DNA from: Okamejei kenojei
Taxonomy: Eukaryota
Reading direction: 5' to 3'
Length of the DNA: 64,000 nucleotides
Assembly: GCA_035221665.1 (NCBI GenBank)
Contig: CM069134.1
Span: forward strand, 89,466,001 to 89,530,000
Shown here: one piece after another, positions 18,036-56,537 of the stretch
Numbering within the stretch: position 1 is the stretch's first letter
How the letters are laid out: each line of letters begins with the position of its first letter
Made by a program: the position numbers and the translations under genes
The notes under the pieces: model-generated
Seen by the model: the letters and a program-made list of their open reading frames with translations, nothing else
Databases searched by the model: none
Told to the model about the DNA's origin: nothing

Positions 18036-19766
18036 GAATGGTAAGAATTATTTTAACTGTGCAAAAACTACACCAAGGCAATATTTGGTGCATAGAACAA
18101 AACTTTGAGAGTGGCCCTGGCTGAGATCACCTTGTGCACCATTGGACCAGATCTGGCTGCAGGGACTAATTCCTGTGCACAAGATGGGAAGGTTATATTG
18201 AGTCTCTCCACGATCAAGCAAGCCAAGTAGCATTACCCATTGCCGATCAAGCAGCCTACTGTCAAAAGAGAAAAGCAAATACACACTACACCACCGGTGA
18301 GCTAACCCCATAATTACAATGGCACTACACTGCCCTCACCAACTGGACAGCTGAAGGAAAACCTTTCCTTGTACAAAATGCAGCAAAACACCAACAGGTT
18401 TACATTTTCTTTTATTTTAGACAGGTTCAATGCCAACCAATATTGCAGAATAGTTGAATGTGGATAAAATAATAAATGACCTCAATTGGCACAATGGTAC
18501 CTAATAATACTGTGATAATAAACAAAAGTAAACTTTAACTTGGCTTATAAATCTGCTTAGTTGATCAGGTGCCCATTAGAATTCTATTTCTTAAATTTCA
18601 TGCATTGTTTAGCACATTGGTAGCAGGATCAGTCCAGAGAAGTGACAACATACAGTGGCAATTAAGCACGTGTAACCAATTTGTAATTTTCCTTTTCCTG
18701 GCACAAACAATCACTAAGACATTACTTGAGCACAGATAAGTCGATGTTCGAGAATTCTCTTGTAAAAAATAGGTATCAAACTGCCTTGAATGTTGACTAA
18801 CTCAGTGTTTTAAGGCACTTTATTGGAATGCAAGGGTATAAAAGACTGAAGGCAGTGTATAAATATATATGAAGGTCTCATTGAGGATCATAAAAATATT
18901 TTGCAGCCAAAATAAGTCTAAATTCTGGCACTTTTCACAACAGTGATGGTTTCAGTTTTGTTCAGTGGAGAAATTACCTCACATAATATGGCCTTCTGTT
19001 ATTCAAAGTTTTAATGGATTGGGTCTATATCAACAACTTTTAATAGATACAGCACAGTCTTTGTTTTTTTTTTACAAGTAGCACAGGAAATAATTAATTT
19101 AGCTAAATTCCACAGAGCTCTGAAAGGTACAGCGCCCTCGTTAATGCTTCAGGGTGCATTGCTCTCCAGGTTTCTGAAGCAACTAAAGATACGGTCATTG
19201 ATTTAAGACAATATATAGACTAGCATTAAATCTATACTGCCTTGATGCTGTATAAAGATAATAAATCTGGTCAGACCAACGCCATATTTGAGTAACAGAG
19301 GACCAGTTTGTCCTGTCAGGTACTGATTTGAGCCAGAAAGGTTACAGATTAGTTTGGTCATGTCAAGTGAACTGACAAAGACTTCTCTAATTCTGTTGGA
19401 AATGAGGAAACCTGATGGCAAAGGGGAAGCCTAATGAGTCCATCAAAGGCTTGATTTGTACGCAACAGACAAGGCAGCTGTGAATTGTATGAAAATATTG
19501 GAAATCAATAACTTCTATGGAATTTCATTAAGCAGCGGTATCCACAATTGATAGGGTTTCATAATTTGATGGATTGTGCAAAGAAAATGATTAGCTAGGC
19601 AGAATGAGTGATAGAATACGCACAGAGGGACCTGAGATGTATTGAAGTGAGGTAATTTGTACAAAATAAAAAAATATTGATTTTAGTTATGTGCAAAAAC
19701 TTGAAATTGGAGGGAGGGGTTGTCCGGTAAGTCATTGCTTGATGTGTCCCTTTCATTTCCTTGTAG

Positions 19767-22700
19767 TCCCAAGGGAAGGACCGGATGATGCTGATAGTGG
19801 GAATGAAAGTAGAAGTGGAAGTGAAGAAACGCACATCTGTGAGAAATGCTGTGCAGAATTCTTCAAGTGGTCTGACTTCATGGAGCATCAGAAGAACTGC
19901 ACAAAGAACCCGCTCGTCTTAATCGTCAACGACGAGGAGGCAGCGCGCTCAGAGGATTTGCCCGAGGCTTCCCCTGCCAGCAGCCCGAGCGACCAAGTGG
20001 AGAGCGAAGCTGGTGAGGACAATGTTCCGTTAGAGGGGAATGACTGCTCTGAGGTAAAGAGTACCGAGCAAGAGGAGCCGATGGAGGTGGACGCATCCAC
20101 TGACAAAGGTTACCAGAATCAAGGAGCCACTGGCACTGCTACTTTGCTACCTCAGATCTCCGAATCATCTTCCATGACCAGTTATAACATGCCAAACACT
20201 AACGTGACTTTAGAGACTTTGCAGAGCACAAAGGTGGCAGTGGCACAGTTTTCACAAGACACCCGGTCTAACAGCCCCACTTCAATTCATACAATACCCA
20301 CCATGGCTATTCCTATGATTCTAGAGCAGTTAGTGGCTCTGCAGCAGCAGCAGCTGCACCAGCTTCAACTCATTGAACAAATCCGGAACCAGGTAGCGAT
20401 GATGAACCCGCAGACAATGCTCCCTCTAAACCCTTCTGCATCCTCCCAGGTTACACCAGTATCTGCTGCTAGCCAGCACGCCTCCTTCAGTGACCATTCT
20501 TCTAACCCCTTGTCAGGCGTCATTTCAGCCTCGGGCACAGTGCAGGCGCCCAACGTCCACACTTCAGCTTTCGATGCCTCCCAGAAAATCGGTCCGCCCA
20601 CCTCGGGGGCTAGTACTCCTGTTCTACCCAGTGGTGGATCACCGCGATTGGAGTCCACTTTGCCTCCATCCACAAGTGGAATTGCATCTTCCCTGACTCC
20701 AAGTTCCAGTGCAAACACAGATAACTCTTCCTCCCAATTGCAGTATTCAACGTCATCTCTTGCACACGGTAGTCTCCTCAGTCCATCTTCCAGCATGCCT
20801 AATCCACTGCTACCTCAGAATTCCTCAAGTGGTGTGATATTCCCAAACCCCTTGGTCAGCATTGCTGCCACAACCAATGCCCTGGACCCACTGGCTGCCC
20901 TTATGAAGCATCGGAAAGGGAAACCACCCAATGTGTCTGTGTTCGACCCTAAAACAAGTTCAGAAGATCCTTTTTTCAAGCATAAGTGTAGGTTTTGTGC
21001 TAAGGTCTTCGGGAGTGACAGTGCATTACAGATTCACCTTCGTTCTCACACTGGGGAGAGACCATTCAAGTGTAATATTTGCGGAAACCGGTTTTCCACC
21101 AAAGGTAATCTCAAAGTACACTTCCAGAGGCATAAAGAAAAATACCCTCACATCCAGATGAATCCATATCCAGTACCCGAATACCTGGATAATGTACCCA
21201 CTAGCAGTGGTATTCCATACGGGATGTCCTTGCCACCTGAAAAGCCAGTGACAACCTGGCTGGACACCAAACCTGTGCTGTCAACCATACCAACATCAGT
21301 TGGATTACAGTTGCCTCCAACTCTATCAAGTATTACAAGTGAGTCCCCAACAGTGACTCCATTAAGCAGGTCACCCCAAAGACCATCACCTCCATCCAGC
21401 GAATGTGCTTCTTTGTCACCAAACATGAACAAGAATGATTCTAGCATTCCAATAACTGCAGAGTCTCCACAGTCAGTTTCTGGCAGTACTATCGTTTCCA
21501 TGGTCCAAGGTTCAAATGCATCAGCTTCAGGTTTCAAGGTGGTAGAAGGCTGTGCATCCACGCAGTCCATCTCCTCAGCTGCGTGCTCCACCACCTTTTC
21601 TACATGTGGAGAGAGTGAAGTGAACAGCGTTCCCACAACCCTTCCCAGTCCTCTGCTCCCCATTATATCTGATCAGTTCAAGGCAAAGTTTCCCTTTGGC
21701 GGTCTGCTGGATTCTATGCAAACATCTGAGACCTCAAAACTGCAACAGTTGGTGGAGAACATAGACAAAAAGATGACAGACCCCAACCAGTGTGTTATCT
21801 GTCACCGTGTACTCAGTTGTCAGAGTGCTCTGAAAATGCATTACCGCACACACACAGGCGAGAGGCCATTTAAGTGTAAGATCTGTGGACGCGCCTTTAC
21901 CACCAAGGGGAACTTAAAGACACACTTCGGAGTTCACCGTGCAAAGCCACCCCTTCGAGTACAGCATTCTTGTCCCATTTGCCAGAAGAAATTTACAAAT
22001 GCTGTAGTCTTACAGCAGCATATCCGAATGCACATGGGGGGACAGATTCCCAACACTCCATTGCCAGAAGATTTCTCAGATAGCCTGGACAGAGACTTAT
22101 CTTGTGATGAAATGAATGCAGAACTAATGAGCGACTATCCTGACGATGAAATGATGGATGAAAATTCAATGGACGAGGAGGCAGAATTAAACATTGCCAC
22201 GATGGAGTCTTCAAAACAGTTGTTCTGCTACTCTGGTTCATCACCAAACTCACCGCCTTCGGTGATTTCCAACATTGCCGCACTGGAGAATCAGATGAAG
22301 ATAATAGATTGTGCTTTGGGCACACAGCAGCGATCCAACGTGAAATCTGTTGAAAACGGATCCATGGAAAGCGATCGCTTAACAAATGACTCTTCCTCTG
22401 CTGTGGGTGATCTGGAAAGTCAAAGTGCTGGTAGCCCTGCACTGTCTGAGTGCTCTTCTTCAATGCAGGCATTGTCGCCCGTACCCAGCAATGCTGGGAG
22501 TCAAACGTCAAAGTCACCAGGCTTTGGCAACCATGAAGAGCCACATGAAACACCGGTGAAACTAGAAAAAGTGGAATGTCCATCAACTCAACGGGAGAAT
22601 GGAGGTGCACTTGATCTGACAGCCACCAACCTGAGCCGGCCGATCATCAAAGAAGAGGCTTTTAGTATGCTGTTCCCCAACCAAGAATGTGGTAAGTTGA

Positions 22701-23248
22701 AAAGTACTGTTTGTAGTATCTGTGGGAAACCTTTTGCTTGTAAAAGTGCGTTGGAAATTCACTACCGCAGCCATACTAAAGAGCGTCCATTCCTTTGCAC
22801 AATCTGCAATCGTGGTTGCTCCACTATGGGTAATTTAAAACAGCACTTACTGACTCACAAGATGAAAGAACTTCCTTCTCAGTTATTTGAACCCAACTCC
22901 ACTCTAGGTCCCACCCAAAGTACTCCTAGCCTGGTCACCAGCACTGCACCAACCGTGGTCAAAATGGAAGTCAATGGTCACAGCAAGCCGATCTCCCTAG
23001 GTGATGGCACGCAGGTTCCAGTTGGTATACAGGCTCCATCTGCACCACAGACAGCTCTGAGTCCAGGTATGACACCCATTCTGGCACCACCACCTCGTCG
23101 GACTCCCAAGCAGCATAACTGTCCGTCCTGTGGGAAGACCTTTTCTTCTGCAAGTGCTCTTCAGATCCATGAGCGCACTCACACTGGTGAAAAGCCTTTT
23201 GGCTGCACAATCTGTGGCAGAGCTTTTACAACAAAAGGGAATCTTAAG
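19767..23248 (+). CDS. SALL3: Sal-like protein 3, large coding exon 2 (C2HC finger, Q-rich region, C2H2 zinc-finger clusters 1-3 and most of cluster 4)
   Basis: ORF 19691-23263. Acceptor ttcatttccttgtAG ends at 19766 (phase 1); donor AAG|GTAAGA starts at 23249 (phase 0). The peptide [31 protein letters not shown]...[10 protein letters not shown] resembles the SALL3 N-terminus. Also [16 protein letters not shown] and double C2H2 fingers with the SAL box F(T/S)TKGNLK. Confidence 0.96.
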
Positions 23249-23409
23249 GTAAGATCATTTTGATGTATAAATTAGTGATAAGAATGTATTGACTGTTTTT
23301 CTTTTAACCATGAATCTGCAAATATAAATGTGATGAATGGTTGAAAATAGTGACCATGTTGCAGCTATTGTTTGTCTTCACTTTGAGATTCTAGTCTTCA
23401 TACAGTGTC

Positions 23410-23695
23410 AGTCACACACAGACACACNNNNNNNNNNNNNNNNNNNNNNNNNNNNNNNNNNNNNNNNNNNNNNNNNNNNNNNNNNNNNNNNNNNNNNNNN
23501 NNNNNNNNNNNNNNNNNNNNNNNNNNNNNNNNNNNNNNNNNNNNNNNNNNNNNNNNNNAGACAAACACACTCACAGACAGACAAACACACTCACAGACAG
23601 ACAGATACACTCACATACAGACACAGACAGACATACTCACACACAGACATCCACACACCACATTACAGCCTTACACCAACACAGTAACATACACA
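23410..23695. repeat. (CA)/(CAGA)-rich microsatellite spanning an assembly gap
   Basis: Degenerate cacacagacaga repeats on both sides of an N run at 23428-23558. Confidence 0.95.
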
Positions 23696-26596
23696 TACTT
23701 AATTTTCAGAACTTAATAGGGCAAAGATTCCGTCATTATCAAATAATATTTAAAAATAACAAATTAAATATGATAGATTGTTTTTTACTGAACATTACAT
23801 TTCACATTGCAGAGGAATATTTAAATTAATAAAAACAATAATTTTATATGAATTTTATTTATGATTGAATTGCAAATGTTGCTGAGTATTGTAATAAAGA
23901 GAACAGGTTTGACATTGAATACTGAAATGTCTTTCCTTTTTTACAGTTCATTTGTTTACCCCATATTTCTTATCTGCTTTTGTCAGTCAATTTGTCACTA
24001 GAATTTATCTGAACTGCATTGTCTTATAGAAATATGCTACATTCAAATCAGCAAGTGGGGTGGTGGAGTTTCCCCTTAAAAAAAGGCCTTTGTTTTCAAT
24101 TTAATCAGAAAAGTCTGCTATTTTTATAGCATCACGACTGAAAGAATATTTGCCTAAACTAAACTTTCCAAATTTGTACATTCTCCTTATAGACTAGAGA
24201 TATCCAAGAGAGGTTTACTACATCATACAAAATTAGAAAACTTTAGTTCTGAAATTCCTGCCTTTCATTCTGGACTCCATAATATACCAAATTCTATACG
24301 ATAAATTGAGGATCTCAAGTTACATAAAATATTACATGCACCACCCTGGAGTCACATGAACTTTTAATTGACCAAGAACAAACATAAAAGTCCATTCTAT
24401 TTCAAGTTTTGGCTTCTGCTATAATTATTAAATAGATAAACTCAGGAAGGCATTTAATAAGAATGAATACAAGATGACCTTCCAACAATACTTGAAATTG
24501 ACTGCTTGTGTGGTGTACAGTTACAGTCAAAATATTTCTAACCAATGACAATCTTATAAGTGTCACGGAACAGTAATACTGTCAACAAAAATCAAGAAAA
24601 TGGCAGATGCTTGAAATCTGACATAAAAACAGAATGTGGAAATGAGTTTGAGACGAATAATGCAGGCAGGCAAATAAAATAGTTGCGCTGATTTTCCCTT
24701 TAACAATAAAACAATTATGCTTGAGAATTATTTGCCAATAGGTTGAGCTGGAGCAGCATCAGCAGATTGCACTCCACCTCTGCAAATCAGTGCATTGAAC
24801 TTATGAGAACTGAATTTTGAAGGCAGATTTCAATTGGCTGATGCTGTTCTCCTAGCTCCTTGAACTCAGCCAGGCAGTAACAAATTTTGAGCCATTATCT
24901 TTTTAAACTGATGTCTCCTCTAGTAAATTAGTAATAAATTGTGCATTGTAACTGAATGTTGATGTGCTGTACTCAAGTAACATACCTTTCCTTCTCAGAT
25001 ATAATAACCCAAATACTTTTAACCTGTGATGTCTCAGCTTTCCACTTCTTGACCATTCTTTAGACTAATTGCATTTGGAGAGATTGTAGGTATAAACCGA
25101 TTGGAGTTAATTCTTGAAAATCCATCAATGCAATTAAAGCATTGCATTTACAGCTTGGAACAAATTTACATTTGTGGTTTATTCGCAAATGTTAAAGACT
25201 GCTTTTGAACCAGACAGCCAGGATATAATGTTAAAGGTGCATTATATTATTGCTCAACTTCCCACTCCAATTTAGGTCATTTGTAATGGGAGATTCAATG
25301 TTGGCTGAGGGCCTGTTTATTTTCTCTGCCCATCTCGGTTATGATTTCATAATGATAAGGTTCCAAGGAATTGAAATTCATATTTAGCAGTTTGCGCTAA
25401 TTGAGTAGACACTGCATTGGAATCATTGGAGCCAAATTTTGTAAATGGTGTACAACTGCAGATATTATTGTGTCACAAGTGACTAAGGACATCTTTCCAT
25501 CTGCCCTCTGTTTTTATACCAGTTGAAACCCAGTTGAAAAGTGTCTGGAGAAAGAAGAAGGAATGACAACTATGATTAATACTTTTCTTTGAATGTTCAA
25601 GGATAAAAAGATTGGAATAGCAAGAATTACAATGCATAGGTTGGTTGTTAATGCCGTGCTGCTGTCATGTTTATTAGAAGGGCAAATTAATCTTGCGAAG
25701 CAGAGGGAAACAGCATCAGATCCTGATTTCTTGTTAGCATACTGTTACACTGTTTAAACACAACATTCGCATAAGTGTAAAGTCTCTTTTTATTATCACT
25801 GTTAATATTTGCAAACAAAGTAACATTGTGGAATTTCTCTTGCCAGAAAGAAAGTTGCAGTTAATCACAGCAATTTATTTTGTGAATTAATTTTTCTCAT
25901 TACTTATGTCCAAAATCATTAGATATCATTGTAACTTCCACAGAATCATGTAGACAGAATATGATCAAAATTAGAAAAAGATTTGAATTCCATAATTAGT
26001 TCTTCCTTGAAGAGATTTGTAATTATAACTTCATCATACTAAAGATGGATGGAAAATAATTGTATTTAAGCATTTTTCTTTACAATTTCTGGATATCCTT
26101 GGTGCCTTTTATTTTTATTTGTATTGGTGTGAATATAAAGGGGGCAACGACAATGCAAGAACATGTTCACTCATGCAGAGTTCACAGCTTATATCACTTT
26201 GGACATGAAAGTATTGATAGCATAGGTATAGCTGACAAGGAGATCAACAGTATCATATAAATGGAGGAATAACAATAAGGTTCCACAAAACTAACACATT
26301 TTTATACCCTGCACTGCAAGCACTCCCATTCTTGTCCTTCTTCAGGAACCCATATTGGATAGTGTAGATATGGATGTCAAGTGACTGGCGACTCTCTTGA
26401 CAGTACTGATCCCATAGTTAGAGAGAATGATGAAACCTTCAGATGCTTGACATCTGAACTACAAACAGAAACTCAGTAGATCGGGCAGCAAGACTTACTC
26501 AATTTGATGAAGGACATTCGACTTAAACATTAACTGTATCTCTTTCCACAGACAATTTCTGACCTGCTAAGTTTTCCCGTATTTTATAATCCTATA

Positions 26597-26896
26597 CAGG
26601 TCATCGCTGGGTTATGAACATCAGACTTGCAGACGCCCCTGCATAAAAACAAAGTCCCATAACATTATTAAATTTAAAAGTCCAATATCTTACAAATGGC
26701 AGAAACTAAATTCCTCTCCCTCTCCACTTTTAATAATTGTTCCTTCTTATTAATCCAATCTGCTTTTGATGCTATTCATTACTATCCTATGGAGATATGG
26801 TTACTGTATCAAATATTTTTTTTGTATTTTACGATTTATGAACAAAAATGACTTGGGGGCATTGGTAAAAACCTATTCATTACCTGGGTTGACCTG
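26597..26896. mobile_element. Tigger/pogo-like MITE, second copy, opposite orientation to 12197
   Basis: TA|CAGGTCATCGCTGGGTTATGAAC ... TTCATTACCTGGGTTGACCTG|TA. The interior resembles the reverse complement of 12197-12500. Confidence 0.75.
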
Positions 26897-28254
26897 TAAT
26901 TAATTAGATGGCTGGCACTGAGTCTTCATGTATGACAATGTAAAATGGTAATGTAACTTATTTGTTATTTTGCTTTACTTACACTCATGATTGATATTAT
27001 CAGTAGGAGGAGGGATGCAAATGGTTCATCTCTCTCAGTTATTCAGGTCAATGGGACCAAATGGGAGTTAAGGGAACAACTAACTGATGCTCCCATAAAC
27101 ATCAGACAACCGAGTACATATTATACCCCAGATATTCTGCCGATAACCATGTGCACAATTTAAGCTCCCCCCACCGTTAATGCTAATCAGAGGTAAAAAT
27201 AACAAATTGTAATAAGTTATGTCAACATTTTTTCATGGACAAATCGTGAGATGTAATACCACCAGTTCATGTAATTATAGGATTAATACATTGAAGAACC
27301 CATCACTTGACATCTACGTCTACCCCATCCGATAAGGGTTAATAAATAGGGATTAAAAAATGGGAGACCCAGAGTTGATCTCTCATTTCACTTTAGTCTA
27401 TCAACCTAGGTTCTTCCCTCACACTCTCAGCTCCAGTAACATCTTTTTGAAGGAAGCACCCTCTTCACCAATAGAATTTCCTCCTTCAACATGATTCTCT
27501 TCTGCATACCACATCACACTGCAGTCCAAGATATTTGTTGTTGATGTGCAGTGTTCCTTTGAAATAACAGTGATTAGCTTCATCGTTTCTGTTGTTGCTA
27601 TTTAATTTGCAGAATCAAATTTCCCAGAAATTGGAGGCAGCAAATATTAGCTGAGAGCTTAAATTATAATTGTTGCTTCTCACTTCACAGTTAATGCACA
27701 CTGTGATGCATACTTAAAACTTTGACCGGCCACACAGGCAAAGGTTAAAACAATTGCACAAACCAGTTCAATAGAATGATATTAAATTTGTTCATTTATA
27801 TATATATCTATATTTGTGATTACCTTGTTAAAACCCGATTATTATATTTTTAGACATTCGGTTCTAGTTGGTAATGCTTAACGTGCTATAAAGTAGTGAT
27901 ATCCATGCTGAGAGTTTGAAATTCAGTTCCACTTATTTCAATGGGACTGAATTTTAAAAGTCGAGTCTAGTGCAACACAGTTACTATGTAATGCATTCAA
28001 GATTACCAATGAACAACAGATATCATTTCTGTCTTTCAGTATTCTGTCAAAGCTTGACATGTCAATTGTCCTCGATTCTAATTTTTTACATATTGGGGGT
28101 TTTAAACCGAGGACTTGTTCTAGTTCAAATAAAAGTTACCAGGGCAGATGAATTGCATCTCACTGGTGTTTGTGGGAACTTGTGTGGCACAAAACATCTC
28201 CTTCATCTTCCTCATTTACCCAACAACAGTCAAAATAATCAATTAACATTGAAC

Positions 28255-28930
28255 ACAGAACACAAGAGGAATAGGCACTTTGGCCCACAATGACCATCCC
28301 AAACATGATGCCAAGTTAAGCTAAACTAAACTGCAGGTGACTCATATCTCTCCATTCCCTGCATATCAATGTGCCCATTTAAAAGCCCCTTAAATGACAC
28401 TGCTGTATCTGCCTGCATCACCCGCAACGCCCGAGCAGGTGTTCCAGGCACCCACCACTCTCTGTGTAATAAAGCCCTCGCACATCTCTTTTAAACTTTG
28501 CCCCTATCATCTTAAAGCTATGCCTTGTTTTTGACTTGTGTATAGGCACATGGAAATGCAGGGAATAGAGGTGTATGGATCATGTGCATGCAGAAGAAAT
28601 CAGTTTGGTTAGGCAATATGTTTGGCACAAATATTATGGGCAGAAGGGCCCATTCCTGTGCTGCACTGCTCTGTGTTCTATGTTCTATTTCCACCTTGAG
28701 GAAAGGGTTCTGAGTATCTATCCAATATATGCCTCTCATAATTTATATTATCCCATTGGATCTCCCTTCAGTTTCCAACACTCCAGAGAAAACAATCCAT
28801 GTTTGTCCAATCTCTCCTTTTTGCTAATCTAGGCAGCATTCTGATAAGCCTCTTCTGCACCCTCTCCAAAGCCTCCATATCCTTACTGTAATGGGGTAAC
28901 CAGAACTGCACACAACACTCCAAATGAGCA
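28255..28930 (-). mobile_element. Degraded CR1 3' fragment with an opposite-orientation CR1 tail nested at about 28545-28688
   Basis: Minus-strand CR1 motifs (ccagaactgcacacaacactcca, ctgcaccctctccaaagcc) are interrupted by the plus-strand tail gaagggcccattcctgtgctg..ttctatgttcta. Confidence 0.75.
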
Positions 28931-30184
28931 GAAGCATAATTGGCAGAGGTTTTCTCAGCATGCCTGTCATAATAGCTTTACCAGAAGTTTTTTTACATAT
29001 TCAATTTGCATGGGAAACCTGGTTTCCTCCAAAGTTATGAGATTCTAAGCTTCAGCATTCCAAAACATCTGTGCTGATTAGAATAAGACATGGTAAGAAT
29101 GCATTATTTTCAAAATGTAAATGATGACAAATATACTTTCAGAATGTTTTCTCTCCAAAGCCTCTGGATTCAGACCTGCTAATTTGCTGAGTGGGATATG
29201 TAATTTTCCTCATCTCCATTTTCAATGTCATTCCATGCTTAACCTTACAACTATAAGACATTGCCACTCTGCCATCGTTCTTGCTAACCCAATCAAAACC
29301 AGCGAACCTCCTTTGAAAGAAAATCAGCGTCCAAAGACATCCGTTTAAAGTCCCTAGTGTCCTGTATTCAGTAGAAATTAGTTTTCAATAAACTGAAAAT
29401 AACGTGATTGTTTAAAGTCTTAAGCCCACATTCAGACCAGCAAGAATTCTGTAGCTAACACTATGAATGATGAATTATGCTGCGCAAAATCAATACAGCG
29501 ATTTGATAACATGAATGTATTTTAAAACATTTCAGTACAGAGGAGCAATAATTGATTTTATAAATGAGAAATCATGCCTTAAAAAATTATTCCAAATATA
29601 GAGACCCAACTCAGTCATTCAAACCTGTTAAAAATTAATTTGTTTTCTCAGACCATTTTTTTCTCTGTTAATCTATCTTTTGAATTTATTCAAATGAGGT
29701 GGCAGTATCTACCGACAGCGCACTTCAAATGACATACATCTCTAAACCTGCAAAAACATCTAGACTGCAAAGTAAAACTAAGCAGTTCATTCAAATGCAG
29801 CTCTCTTTGGTCATATGGCAATTGTATTCTGAGTGCGCTTTAGCCATGTGTGCTTACCAATAAGCAGACTTTGTGGCCTGAAGATCACAAACTGCTTAAG
29901 CACAACTCAAACTCAGAAACAAGAATAATTTAACCATGTGTAAAGTGATCTCAACGTGTCATGACAAAAGTACCGGTAAAGCCACAGAATCTAGTTTGAG
30001 AAGATGCTGGATGGAAAAACACAAAAATAGGTCACCACATGGTATGTGCTGAATTCCCGCATTAACATGCATTTATATGGTGGCTTTTAACATTAAGGTG
30101 TTTCACGGGAATATTTCACTTTGGAAATGTAAATCAAGGCTGTTCTATGTTCCAAAACATGCATCAAAACAGCTCTATAATATT

Positions 30185-31095
30185 CATAGCACATGGAACA
30201 GTAGACCACAGGAACATCTGTGCTGAAGATGATGCCAAGTTAAACTAATCTTCTCTGCCTGCCTTGATCTACAACCCTCCATTCCCTGCATATCCATATG
30301 CCTATCTAAAAGCCTCTTGAACACCACTATCATTATTGCCTTCCACCACCACACCTGGAAACGCAATCCAGACACCCACCACTGTGTGTGTGTGTGTGTA
30401 AAAAAAGCCTCATGTGTCTCCTTTAAACTATCCCCCTCTGACCTAAGAAAAAGGTTCTGTCTACACAAGTTCCCACAAACACCTATGCCTCTCATAATTT
30501 TATATATTCCATCAGATCTGCCCTCAACTGCTGATGCTCCAGAGAATACAACCAAAGTTTATCTAATCTCTCACTATAGCTAATTCGCTCTAATCCAGGC
30601 AGCATTGCAGCAAACCTCTTATGCACCCTCTCCAAAGCCTCCTCAACCTTCCCCCAGCAGGCTGACCAGAATCCACACTAAACTCTACATGCAGTGTATC
30701 CAAACTTTGATGAAGCTGCAACATGACTTTCTGACTCTTGTACTCAATGCCCCGACTGATTAAGGCAAGCATGCCATATGCTTTCTTTTGTGTCGCATTT
30801 TCATGGAACTATGAATGTGGACCCCAAGATCCCACCATACATCAATGCTGCTAAATGTCTTGCTGTTAACTGTATATTTTTTTCTATATTTGATCTCACA
30901 AAGTGTAACACTTCACATTTATTTGGATGAAACTCATCCTACCATTTCTCACCCCATTTCCGTCATACCTAGCTGATCACAAAGCTGTCACATAGTTGAT
31001 CATAGTTGATCCCCGCTGAATCATTTGACATCCTTCCTTACTGTCCTCAACTCCATCAATTTTGGTATCATCTGCATACTAGTCAACCCATCCAT
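30185..31095 (-). mobile_element. Degraded CR1 LINE 3' portion
   Basis: ORF 30590-30772 (LALISRGIEYKSQKVMLQL); tatcatctgcatact encodes the YADD motif on the minus strand at about 31070. Confidence 0.8.
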
Positions 31096-33136
31096 ATTTA
31101 CCTCCAAGTCAATTATATTCATAATAATAATAAACCTGCTGTGATAATATTCCTTTCCTGGTGTTGGATGGTCCTAATTATCTCCTTTGGTGACACTTAG
31201 CTCTACATCCATCCTTGTGTTTGGCCGCACCATTGAAATGTGCTCTGATGACATTGAATAAAATCTTAGAATTAAAATAATTGTTTTTAATCTCACCAGC
31301 CTCATTTCCCTAACTATTGACTGACATTTTTCTCTCTTTGGAAAACCAATGAGCCACAAAAGGAGATAGAGAGTGGTGACCAAAAATTACTTGATAAAAC
31401 AGATTTTGCAGGAGGACAGTGAACTCGCGAGGTTTCAGGTGTGGCAGTTGGAGTGCTGGGAATTAGAGCAATTATAGCCTTCATTGTCTTTATCTCGATC
31501 ACATAATTTCCCAAACATATTTTACTCAGAGAGTGGTCCTAATCTAGAATTCACTGCTTTTGAAGGTGGTGGAATCAATTTGTATATACAACTGGATAGG
31601 CAGCAGAGGAAACCATTTGCTAGTTTTGAGGAAAGAAGGGAAAATTGGTTTGATTGCTCTATTCATAGATGCTATGAACTCAATGAGCTCAACTGTCGCC
31701 TCTGTGCCATAATAAATCTGTGATTCAGTAAAAATTAGTCTTGCAGAGCTGGGCCGAATGGAAGTTCTCAGTTCAAGTCCACATTTTGTCGCCAATGATA
31801 AAACATGGCAGGCAAGCATGCAAAACTGATAGAGTGCAATGATCTCAAAGGCTGGTAGAGCAGAGGATGTTTTGGAAGCAGAGAGCAGAAAAGCCATAGA
31901 AGGAATTGAAAACAGTAATGATTTATTGGTGTATAGAATTAAACATAGTCTACTGCTCATAGTTTCGTGTTTTTGTCCACTCGATACAAATTGTGGCACT
32001 GACATTATTTAACGTTACCTTCCTGATTGTTCCCATTGTGTCCAGCAGTGAGTTTTCATTCAACCCCCACACTCCGGTCTCCTGAATCCTACAAGCATCT
32101 ATTGTTAATCGTCCTCTTCCTCCTCAACACATGCCAGAATAGATTTATAATTTACAGTACAGGAGTAAAACTAGCTTGGCATTTGGCCATTGCTATGAGA
32201 GCTAACTTTCGCTTTTTTTAAAAAGAAAATTTGTTTTTCCCCTCTATTGCGAAACATGAACTGAGCAGTTTATGTAAGAGGCAGCCAAGTGGCTGCACAA
32301 GATTTATATTCAAGTGGCAAGTTGTAAATCTGAAATAATACCCCCTTTCCTGGTGTGAGATTATGTTCCGTTCACCTATATTGATGACACTTGGCTTTAC
32401 ATCCATCAAGGCATTGAAGGAGCCACAATTAACATTGTGGGGACTCAAATCATTATTTTAAATCTCATCAACCCCTCTGGCCAAACCTTCTGTTGATTTT
32501 CCTAGTTCTCATTTTTCCCTTTTCTCTGTGTTAATATTGTTTGATTAGCCTCCACAAATCACTTTGGAATTTTTGAATTCATGTGAATGCAATTTATTTT
32601 CGAACAAGTCAGCAATTGACATGAAGTAGCACAAATAAAAAGATGAAAACATTACTTGAAAAAAAATTGCCACATCTTAAATTATAAACTTTCAGCTCAG
32701 TGGAGTGAACTGTAATTGTGTTTCACATGTTCAACTTGATGCATTTGAAATGGCCATGACCAGCATAAATAATGTGAGTCAAAGTTAATGAAAGCTTGAA
32801 ACCTGAAATGAACAGACAAGCTGCTAAAAATGTTGAACAGGTTGATTTGTCGCTGGCAAAGAATGCTTAATTACTGTTTTGATAAAGGTCACATCCAAAT
32901 TATAAGCCTCTCCCCTTTCGGATATTCATCAACCCTGCTCCACATTTCCTGCATCCTGTGGTTGTATTTCAGAGTTGTATTTGCTGTCCATCACTATTAT
33001 CAGCTTCTCCAGTCAGAAGGAATCTGTACAGACGGTCATAATGGGGTGATTGCATATCAAAGTGTGTCCTGTTTGAAAACTGTATTCTATTTAATAGTAC
33101 ATTTTCTTTTTGTTACTATTTTATGTTTCTCGTTAG

Positions 33137-33568
33137 GTTCACATGGGAACCCATATGTGGAATAACTCTCCAGCAAGACGAGGACGTCGTTTGTCAGTAG
33201 AGAACCCAATGGCTTTACTAGGCGGTGATGCTGTGAAGTTCTCAGAGATGTTTCAAAAGGACTTGGCAGCTCGGGCAATGAATGTTGACGCAACATTCTG
33301 GAACCAATACGCTGCGGCCATCACGAATGGCCTAGCCATGAAAAATAACGAGATTTCTGTTATACAGAATGGAGGCATCCCTCAGCTCCCTGTTAGCCTA
33401 GGAGCCAGCAGTATCCCAGCTTTAACTAGTCTGGCCAGCGGAATGGACAGGGTTCGTACAGGGAGCAGTCCACCTGTTGCTAGTCTGGAGAAACAAAGCA
33501 CAGAAGGAGGTGCAAGTCGCCCATTCGCTAGATTTATCGAAGATGGCAAAGAAATTGGCATTAACTAA
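33137..33568 (+). CDS. SALL3: Sal-like protein 3, last coding exon
   Basis: Acceptor tttatgtttctcgttAG ends at 33136. [23 protein letters not shown] completes the finger begun in exon 2 (...KGNLK|VHMGTH). The C-terminus KEIGIN* is SALL3-type rather than SALL1-type. Confidence 0.96.
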
Positions 33569-50298: not shown

Positions 50299-51938
50299 CA
50301 GTGCCCTCCGTAATGTTTGGGACAAAGACCCATCATTTATTTATTTGCTTCTCTACTCCACAGTTTGAGATTTGTAATAGAAAAAAATCACATGTGGTTA
50401 AAGTGCACATTGTCAGACTTTATTAAAGGGTATTTTTATACATTTTGGTTTCACCATGTAGAAATTGCAGCTGTGTTTATACATAGTCCCCACCATTTCA
50501 GGGCACCATAATGTTTGGGAAACATGGCTTCACAGGCATTTGTAATTGCTCAGGTGTGTTTACATGCCTCCTTAATGCAGGTATAAGAGAGTTATCAGCA
50601 CCCAGTCTTTCCTCCAATCTTTCCATCCTTTGGAAACTTTTATTGCTGACTTTTATCTACATGAGGACCAAAGTTGTGCCAATGAAAGTCAAATAAGCCA
50701 TTATGGGACTGAGAAACAAGAAGAAAACTGTTAGAAACATCAGCCAAATCTTAGGCTTACCAAAATCAACTGTTTGGAACATCATTAAGAAGAAAGAGAG
50801 CACCGGTGAGCTTACTAATCGCAAAGGGACTGGCAGGCCAAGGAAGACCTCCACAGCTGATGACAGAAGAATTCACTCTGTAATAAAGAAAAATCCCCAA
50901 ACACCTATCCAACAGATCAGAAACACTCTTCAGGAGTCGGGTGTGGATTTGTCAATGACCACTGTCCACAAGAGACTTCATGAACAGAAATACAGAGGAT
51001 ACACTGCAAGATGCAAACCACTGGTTAGCCGCAAAAATATGATGGCCAGGTTACAGTTTGCCAAGAAGTACTTAAAAGAGCAACCACCTTTCTGGAATAA
51101 GATCTTGTGGACAGATGAGACAAATATTAAATTATATCAGAGTGATGGCAAGAGCAAAGTATGGAAAAGAGGGGACAGCATACTATCTCATCTGTGAAAC
51201 ATGGTGATGAGGGTGTTATGGCCTGGGCATATATGGCTGCTGAAGGTACTGGCTCACTTATCTTCATTGATGACACAACCGCTGATGGTAGTAGCATAAT
51301 GAATTCTGAAGGGTATAGACACATCCTATCTGCTCAGGTTCAAACAAATACCTGAAACTCATTGGCCGGCAGTTCATTCTACAGCAAGACAATGATCCCA
51401 AACATACTGCTAAAGCAACAAAGGAGTTTTTCAAAGCTGAAAAATGGCCAATTCTTGAGTGGCCAAGTCAATCACCCGATCTGAACCTAATTGCGCATGC
51501 CTTTTATATGTTGAAGAGAAAACTGAAAGGGATTAGCCCCCAAAACAAGCATAAGCTAAAGATGGCTGCAATACAGGCCTGGCAGAGCATCACCAGAGAA
51601 GACACCCAGCAACTGGTGATGACCATGAATCGCAGAATTCAAGCAGTCATTGCAGGCAAAGGATATGCAACAAAATACTAAACATGACTACTTTCATTTA
51701 CTTGACATTGCTGTGTCCCAAACATTATGGTGCCCTGAAATGGGGGGACTATGTATAAACACTGCTGTAATTTCTACATGGAGAAACCAAAATGTATTAA
51801 AATACCCTTTATTAAAATCTGACAATGCGCACTTTAACCACATGAGATTTTTTCTATTACAAATATCAAATTGTGGAGTAGAGAGGCAAATAAATAAATG
51901 ATGGGTCTTTGTCCCAAACATTATGGAGGGCATTACTG
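50299..51938 (+). mobile_element. Full-length Tc1 (DD34E) transposon with long IR/DR-type TIRs; inactive
   Basis: TA|CAGTGCCCTCC...GGAGGGCATTACTG|TA. TIRs of about 225 bp (50299-~50523 and ~51713-51938), each with outer and inner TAATGTTTGGGA repeats. Confidence 0.96.
50661..51681 (+). pseudogene. Tc1 transposase pseudogene
   Basis: HTH ISQILGLPKSTV, GRPRK AT-hook, WTDET, QDNDPKH, WPSQSPDLNLIAH and C-terminal GYATKY*. Premature stops at 50694 and 51353, frameshifts, and the catalytic Glu 34 residues after the second Asp reads Ala (GCG). Confidence 0.93.
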
Positions 51939-55021: not shown

Positions 55022-56537
55022 CAGAGGTCTGAGGGAATCTGTAGGAGGAGCAATGAGAAAGAGTTTCTTCCTTCAGTGCGGCAGGAGCAAGCAGAGATGA
55101 TGGATCTCCACCATAAAGCATAAGGCATTAGGGGTTCAGTATTGATGTGGATAGAGAACTGGCTGGCAAACAGGAAGCAAAGAGTAGGAGTAAACGGGTC
55201 CTTTTCACAATGGCAGGCAGTGACTAGTGGGGTACCGCAGGGCTTAGTGCTGGGACCCCAGCTATTTACAATATATATTAATGATCTGGATGAGGGAATT
55301 GAAGGCAATATCTCCATGTTTGCGGATGACACTAAGCTGGGGGGCAGTGTTAGCTGTGAGGAGGATGCTAGGAGACTGCAAGGTGACTTGGATAGGCTGG
55401 GTGAGTGGGCAAATGTTTGGCAGATGCAGTATTATGTGGATAAATGTGAGGTTATCCACTTTGGTGGCAAAAACAGGAAAGCAGACTATTATCTAAATGG
55501 TGGCCGATTAGGAAAAGGGGAGATGCAGCGAGACCTGGGTGTCATGGTACACCAGTCATTGAAAGTAGGCATGCAGGTGCAGCAGGCAGTGAAAAAAGTG
55601 AATGGTATGTTAGCTTTCATAGCAAAAGGATTTGAGTATAGGAGCAGGGAGGTTCTACTTCAGTTGTACAGGGTCTTGGTGAGACCACACCTGGAGTATT
55701 GCGTACAGTTTTGGTCTCCAAATCTGAGGAAGGACATTATTGCCATAGAGGGGAGTGCAGAGAAGGTTCACCAGACTGATTCCTGGGATGTCAGGACTGT
55801 CTTATGAAGAAAGATTGGATAGACTCGGTTTATACTCTCTGGAATTTAGGAGATTGAGAGGGGATCTTATAGAAACCTACAAAATTCTTAAGGGGTTGGA
55901 CAGGCTAGATGCAGGAAGATTGTTCCCGATGTTGGGGAAGTGCAGGACAAGGGGTCACAGCTTAAGGATAAGGGGGAAATCCTTTAAGACCGAGATGAGA
56001 AAGACTTTTTTCACACAGAGAGTGGTGATTCTCTGGAACTTTCTGCGACAGAGGGTAGTTGAGGCCAGTTCATTGGCTATATTTAAGAGGGAGTTAGATG
56101 TGGCCCTTGTGGCTAAGGGGATCAGAGTGTATGGAGAGAAGGCAGGTACTGGATACTGAGTTGGATGATCAGCAATGATCATATTGAATGGCGGTGCAGG
56201 CTCGAAGGGCCGAATGGCCTACTCCTGCACCTAATTTCTATGTTTCTATAATGTTTGTGGATTTTGGGAAGGAGATACGTAGGAGCGGGCAATGCAGGGC
56301 TTGGGAATTATAAGGTTGGAGGCTGAGATGGGGAGATTGTCAGAGAGATGAGAGCACAAACCATTTGAGAGATGATGGCCTGGTGTTCATCTGTGTGGTC
56401 ATGGTTATCAGATAGGTATGAGATGGTGAGCTACCACCTGACCTCAAGGGTCTTGGCCTGAAACATCATCTATCCATGTTCTCCAGAAATGCTGCCTGAC
56501 CTGCTGAGTTATTCCAGCACTTTGTGTCCATTTGAAT
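55022..56537 (-). mobile_element. Penelope-like RT fragment (55022-55110 and 56251-56430) plus inverted terminus (about 56445-56530), split by a CR1
   Basis: Minus strand reads DNHDHTDEHQAIISQ ... YLLPKIHK on the right and RSIISACSCRTE on the left; these are consecutive Penelope RT motifs (LPKIHK..GRPIVSAC). Confidence 0.8.
55113..56250 (+). mobile_element. Young CR1-clade LINE, 5'-truncated
   Basis: ORFs 55142-55807 (GVPQGLVLGP..FADDTKL..HLEYCVQFWSP) and 55755-56159, linked by one frameshift; tail atttctatgtttctat. Confidence 0.96.

Follow-up and report, generated by a model that had tools for sequence, protein, structure and literature searches.

The third double zinc finger of SALL3 (ZFC3) in the skate Okamejei kenojei is probably subject to a real and ancient three-way splice choice, and the evolutionary link between this choice and an intron of Sall4 is probably unreported. 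In the explanation that we propose, a donor inside coding exon 2 would have three fates: no use, splicing to an acceptor 216 bases downstream, or splicing to exon 3. Proteins with four, three or two finger clusters would result. The splice sites would have arisen in ancestral coding sequence ahead of the SALL3/SALL4 duplication, and Sall4 would have fixed the optional splice as a permanent intron after genome duplication. Taken as a whole, with three-way use of the donor, sites older than the duplication, fixation in Sall4 and inferred roles for the isoforms, we hold this account to be quite probable.

The window (the whole 64,000-nucleotide stretch analysed) contains exons 2 and 3 of sall3, and exon 1 lies outside it. 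The encoded protein is 97-98% identical to sal-like 3 of Leucoraja, Amblyraja and Rhinoraja, and the matching skate and ray proteins fall within the Sall3 clade of our tree with a support of 100, which identifies the gene as the SALL3 ortholog. Exon 2 lies within a single open reading frame (19670-23263). The features of the locus are as follows.

19768..23248, + strand: sall3 exon 2 in its retained form, encoding the N-terminal finger, Q-rich region, ZFC1, ZFC2, ZFC3 and most of ZFC4 (open reading frame; contigs from the 19767/8 acceptor joined to exon 1 letters)
22692..22697, + strand: internal 5' splice site G/GTAAGT, phase 1, in Gly-Lys-Leu codons, with two acceptors (contigs; Gly-Lys in 185/185 retained forms)
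22692..22907, + strand: exitron of 216 nt, 72 codons (letters, contigs)
22712..22858, + strand: ZFC3, a double C2H2 finger with a divergent SAL box (sequence)
22873..22907, + strand: pyrimidine-rich tract and AG acceptor, CTA G/GT, in Leu-Gly codons (loose-end letters match 22910+)
23120..23248, + strand: exon 2 portion of ZFC4, the rest being encoded at the very start of exon 3 (sequence)
23249..33136, + strand: intron 2, phase 0; skate sall1 and sall4 have their last introns at this same codon (sequence comparison)
33137..33568, + strand: coding part of exon 3, whose acceptor receives the 22692 donor as well (contigs)
33137..33165, + strand: frameshifted tail GSHGNPYVE* of the truncated isoform, with its stop at 33163-33165 (translation; same ending in P0014, P0161, P0166, P0167 and P0209)

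Elsewhere in the window, two open reading frame fragments (1415-2041 and 55124-55807) presumably derive from LINE reverse transcriptase and one (50697-51197) from a Tc1-like transposase, judging by their motifs. On either side of the exitron lie the motifs IKEE (22646-22657) and VKME (about 22959-22970), which we take to resemble SUMO consensus sites; splicing puts them about 33 residues apart, as in Sall4. Intron 2 (23249-33136) contains extra exons or ends in several shark, ray and marsupial models, and the intron 2 variants P0174, P0208, P0220 and P0262 include some with the same frameshifted exon 3 tail.

A sequence-only reading of this DNA had proposed a frame-preserving exitron of 216 nt bounded by a GTAAGT donor and an AG acceptor, and both sites are found, at 22692-22697 and 22906-22907, with a pyrimidine fraction of 0.73 in the predicted tract before the AG. 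The segment has coding sequence on both sides within one exon, canonical 5' and 3' sites and no stop when retained; its 72 codons are in phase 1 at both ends and open within the exon 2 reading frame. The anticipated QECG/PTQS product is identical to the short database isoforms of skates (P0003-P0005), and the SAL box that had been called divergent recurs as GCSTMGNLK in 154 of the 160 retained forms. The claim that splicing would excise exactly the third double finger was correct as to the 49-residue finger pair, but 6 residues before it and 16 after it are also removed. The GC content of the exitron is 0.41, versus 0.49 in the remainder of exon 2. The GTAAGT motif alone is unremarkable, since synonymous resampling gives an expected 0.63 occurrences per copy of exon 2, and RNA evidence is therefore needed. 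For the codon choice at the donor P is ~0.08, and ~0.02 when the acceptor is included. No YTNAY branch motif is present in the interval scanned (22861-22907), which holds two further AGs. The reality of the splice rests on the RNA contigs.

Contigs from 4 of 24 listed runs, belonging to three studies (X1, X4, X5 and X6), were examined over 19600-22790; none of the listed entries is registered as RNA, and RNA status was judged by exon-exon joins. The contigs begin at the exon 2 acceptor, and those of X1 and X5 represent spliced RNA because the letters joined to exon 2 on its upstream side encode the last part of exon 1. The long X1 contig has 11 differences from the window in 2927 positions; X6 comes from a relative, with 253 differences, and was counted for the break at 22693 only. 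Contigs are interrupted at this position, the donor, in all four runs, and two loose ends occur there in X1, X4 and X5. The consensus of the loose ends is a letter-by-letter mix of the sequences starting at 22910 and 33139 (27/27 letters in X1, 27/27 in X4 and 30/30 in X5), with a predicted agreement of 0.574 and a reported one of 0.57-0.58, and mixes with retained sequence fail to reproduce it. The donor is therefore joined to both 22908 and exon 3, the acceptors being identified from the loose-end letters, as contig placement ended at 22790.

The junction from 22691 to 22908, the check that had been suggested along with the exitron, is thus present as contig junction letters in X1, X4 and X5 (three of the four runs); it is in frame and removes 72 residues, including ZFC3. 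The second junction, from the donor to 33137 in exon 3, is a use of the donor absent from the sequence-only reading; it shifts the frame, meets a stop 9 codons on and removes both ZFC3 and ZFC4. The junction contigs of X1 and X4 are 57 nt long, a length consistent with a graph that branches with 3 letters in common; this geometry implies another path into each acceptor. The interval 22703-22790 is without a contig in all four runs, a hole that carries no evidential weight. Since the junctions are seen, a chance motif is ruled out, and an assembly or DNA deletion artefact is ruled out by the GT-AG ends, the two acceptors and the occurrence in other species. At the start of exon 2 (19766-19796), two different short X1 contigs bring in upstream sequence (149 and 60 nt), and the sall3 N-terminus varies among database models, including by one residue, which suggests alternative first exons or a tandem acceptor.

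The same choice is found across jawed vertebrates in database isoforms. A Sall3-type anchor is present in 338 of 534 proteins, comprising 185 retained, 134 spliced, 13 truncated and 6 other forms, and these are counts of records rather than species, biased by the search. Spliced forms occur in chimaera, sharks, rays, bichir, sturgeon, gar and coelacanth among fishes, and in frog, turtles, lizards, birds, marsupials, elephant, rodent and primates among tetrapods; retained and spliced models together span chimaera to primates. The depth suggested from the skate sequence, to the jawed-vertebrate ancestor, is borne out in that the exitron is common to jawed vertebrates in these records, and the mammalian isoform lacking ZFC3, mentioned in that reading, exists in macaque (X1, 1300 residues; X2, 1228 residues). 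The truncated form is recorded for 10 species, all of them sharks, rays, bichirs or Xenopus, and for no amniote among the matches listed. Because its tail reads the conserved start of an exon in the +1 frame, the likeness of the tail across species is not independent support.

The residues at the donor are also telling. Gly-Lys is present in 185/185 retained forms and is followed by Leu, Phe or Cys only, although conservation of the splice letters is read here from residues and gene models, many of them automated and able to copy one another. Codons for Leu, Phe and Cys can all begin with T, as GTAAGT needs; the following position takes 10 residues, and Lys occupies the donor position in 4 of 13 Sall1-like proteins. 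As far as residues can indicate, such a pattern is as expected if GTAAGT, and not the protein, is under constraint. The exitron spacing is 72 residues in 153 of 160 retained forms and 71 in the other 7.

The paralogs bear on the age of the exitron. Skate sall4 has a 10,027-nt phase-1 intron (G000:C20:36332126-36342152) at ends homologous to those of the exitron (TGC A/GTAAGT ... TTA G/GT), and the two genes share their offsets from an upstream KEE motif and to a downstream K-x-E-V motif. The positions of both ends and the phase agree, with the DNA comparison coming from this skate and the comparison in sharks and birds being at the protein level. The chondrichthyan Sall4 representatives have 7 fingers in 6/6 cases, in the alignment their junction shares a column with the one in short Sall3, and bird Sall4 read-throughs (P0499-P0501) stop or start at the same ends. 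The frame into the sall4 intron closes after 10 codons, and no remnant of ZFC3 was found in this intron (best match E 0.37 by tblastn and 0.25 by blastn). At the corresponding places skate sall1 reads GGC AAG TTG and CTG GCT, with no GT donor and no AG acceptor, and its ZFC3 lies within one uninterrupted open reading frame. The comparison with SALL1 and SALL4 introns that had been proposed thus separates the paralogs: the sall4 intron matches both ends and sall1 lacks both sites. Skate sall1 is one synonymous change from a donor, and the donor may have arisen by such a small synonymous change in Gly-Lys-Leu codons (GGC AAG TTG in sall1, GGT AAG TTG in sall3).

An alternative is that Sall4 separately lost ZFC3 and gained an intron, converging on the same latent proto-splice letters. 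GTAAGT is a plain consensus, even the Gly-Lys codons of sall1 need a single change to make a donor, and teleost sall3 and lamprey gene B (see below) lost ZFC3 at or near the same point. Such convergence would nevertheless have to match both ends and the phase to the base, and the host genes are probably a sister pair left by the second genome duplication (2R), for which a single origin is simpler; we regard independent origins as very improbable. The sisterhood comes from Lamb 2021, the consulted part of which assigns SALL4 to quad C, SALL3 to quad D and SALL1 to quad B in the topology ((A,B),(C,D)). Our own trees are compatible with it but fail to settle the order of the paralogs. In AU tests on an LG tree of 15 rows, which left out teleost Sall1, toad Sall2 and others, p was 0.43 for Sall3+Sall4, 0.26 for Sall1+Sall2, 0.08 for Sall1+Sall4 and 0.03 for Sall1+Sall3, the last a weak rejection. 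A search of the skate's own genome matched sall3, sall1 and sall4; sall2 had no match in assembly G000 at E 1e-25 and may be lost, divergent or unassembled. Given the sall4 intron at homologous ends and the published 2R sisterhood, an exitron older than the SALL3/SALL4 split is likely.

The direction of change can be read from the ancestry of ZFC3. The suggestion that the segment is a retained ancestral intron that is now coding is contradicted by hemichordate, echinoderm (crinoid and urchin), lamprey gene A, Sall1 and coelacanth Sall2 proteins, in all of which ZFC3 is present as coding sequence. The available text of Lorente-Sorolla et al. 2018 (PMC5892016) likewise treats this pair, there called ZF4, as ancestral, in agreement with our taxon survey. 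The likely direction is therefore from exon to exitron to intron.

It has also to be considered whether ZFC3 was ancestrally a skippable cassette exon, so that Sall3 lost the flanking introns and was respliced as an exitron from "splicing memory", and Sall4 lost the cassette. Intron loss is a route put forward for some exitrons in the part of Marquez et al. 2015 available to us (PMC4484396), a whole domain lies between the exitron borders, and a real intron occupies this place in Sall4. This history, however, requires a precise double loss in Sall3 and again in Sall1, in which ZFC3 is uninterrupted; ZFC3 is present in every one of the 15 Ptychodera isoforms listed, out of 18, and the donor letters are conserved Gly-Lys-Leu codons common to sall1. 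We consider it improbable. The simplest history is likely to be that a coding exon became an exitron in the Sall3/4 ancestor and then a permanent intron in Sall4.

Lampreys and teleosts bear on other parts of this history. Lamprey gene A keeps ZFC3 in 5/5 models and lacks Gly-Lys; in lamprey gene B, 2/2 models are without ZFC3, starting at the same Gly, and the other boundary of this gene does not align, so that the lamprey evidence does not date the origin of the exitron. The ZFC3 SAL box of lamprey gene A (P0331), RRCTTRGNLK, has Cys as in Sall3, where Sall1 has Phe, which hints at an affinity with the Sall3/4 lineage, though without the donor residues. In teleosts, the named full-length sall3 representatives lack ZFC3 (3/3), a mormyrid model carries a 33-residue finger-less filler between the same ends, and an Umbra model ends four residues past the donor Gly; bichir sall3 keeps ZFC3 open. 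From these gene models, the exitron probably became a true intron again in teleost sall3. The unnamed Sall-like protein P0360, in which a half-decayed ZFC3 retains one finger, may be another instance of loss. We lean, if only somewhat, towards a more pointed formulation, namely that Sall4 intron 2 is a fossilised exitron whose alternative ancestor is still alive in Sall3, that teleost sall3 repeats the step, and that a conserved SALL3 without ZFC4, made by use of the same donor, is a natural damper of SALL repressor complexes.

What the isoforms do is inferred. The three-cluster form would have the architecture of Sall4 and keep ZFC4, the main binder of AT-rich DNA and, in the accessible text of one study (PMC7895904), the main targeting domain of SALL4. 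The four-cluster form would add a second AT-binding module. When ZFC4 contact residues, taken from part of another study (PMC9672407), are mapped to ZFC3, the equivalents of I887, T909, N912, R905 and K914 are kept and K910 becomes Met; base contacts would thus be kept and a backbone Lys lost, which predicts a weaker AT binder. The text consulted yielded no ZFC3 binding data, and the on/off switch for a DNA-binding module proposed in the sequence-only reading is a putative one. The two-cluster form would lack ZFC4 and keep the NuRD motif along with the Q-rich multimerisation region. As its stop lies in the last coding exon, it is predicted to escape junction-dependent decay, and as a partner with poor targeting it might damp the other SALL proteins, a role that is a prediction only.

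Another possibility is that the splice is real but has no regulatory role, the short form being the working protein and ZFC3 a tolerated leftover in the process of being lost. ZFC3 is relaxed in placentals (6.2 mean pairwise differences versus 0-0.4 in the other clusters, 21 records), it is gone from Sall4 and teleost sall3 models, and the records of gar (4) and sturgeon (2) are short only. In database records, however, retained models occur in many species with ZFC3 strongly constrained: the domain hardly varies among cartilaginous fishes (a mean of 0.17 pairwise differences over 49 residues, 12 records), shows 0.96 in sauropsids (8 records), and has kept its frame open with very little change in sharks, rays, bichir, coelacanth, amphibians and sauropsids, which is unexpected of a functionless exitron. 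A leftover without function strikes us as unlikely, if less so than the other alternatives; it is a reading of function alone, and the evolutionary history that we favor could hold alongside it. The relaxation in placentals and the lack of missense depletion in human SALL3 ZFC3 (VdVp 1.29, in the portion seen of PMC9838217) fit a dispensable domain.

The isoforms themselves are already known, being in RefSeq. Xenopus Xsal-1 (sall3) was reportedly found by Hollemann and colleagues in 1996 to be alternatively spliced to give four, three or two double fingers; that report is not known to have covered the depth of conservation or a link to Sall4. The database models of Xenopus sall3 comprise exactly the retained, spliced and truncated forms seen in skate. 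Duplicated genes can partition isoforms, one copy fixing one ancestral isoform. In intronization (Irimia 2008, as cited in the accessible part of PMC4484396), point changes make GT/AG borders in coding sequence. Sall3 and Sall4 differ from these known cases in that the alternative state persists in the sister ohnolog throughout jawed vertebrates.

The EIx3 exitrons of Marquez et al. 2015, as described in the available text (PMC4484396), resemble that of skate in being spliced inside a coding exon, in a length that is a multiple of three, in the absence of a stop, in a GC content below that of the host exon and in borders at a domain. The skate exitron differs from that description in its full-consensus donor, which is used for splicing to the next exon too, as an alternative 5' site, and in its inferred route from exon to exitron to intron rather than by intron loss. 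The splicing of exon 2 that gives SALL4A and SALL4B likewise removes SALL finger clusters, according to the consulted parts of PMC9838217 and PMC7895904, with the difference that SALL4B loses ZFC1-2 and keeps ZFC4, whereas skate SALL3 loses ZFC3 or ZFC3 and ZFC4. A figure legend in a 2021 review draws SALL3 with all finger motifs and, within that legend, gives no such isoform (PMC8699250). Our search, with subscription journals and the supplements of Marquez 2015 outside its scope, found no publication on a SALL3 exitron or a Sall3/Sall4 intron link.

The three-way choice also bears on the report, in the part of Lorente-Sorolla et al. 2018 available to us (PMC5892016), that ZF4 (= ZFC3) is absent from chick and murine Sall3 through lineage loss. 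Birds and rodents show both forms in the records that we fetched (e.g., Apodemus, 1322 and 1250 residues), and from these other bird and rodent records the reported absence is likely to be a matter of isoform choice. Reports of chick or mouse Sall3 "lacking" the finger pair may thus reflect which isoform was cloned, and experiments on SALL3 should name which of the three isoforms was used. The splice choice also offers a reason for the missing human constraint on SALL3 ZFC3. The three finger clusters of SALL4 are likely explained as the fixed splice form of the pre-duplication ancestor, and the Sall3/Sall4 pair would provide a traceable intron gain by way of an exitron, with the intermediate state still alive.
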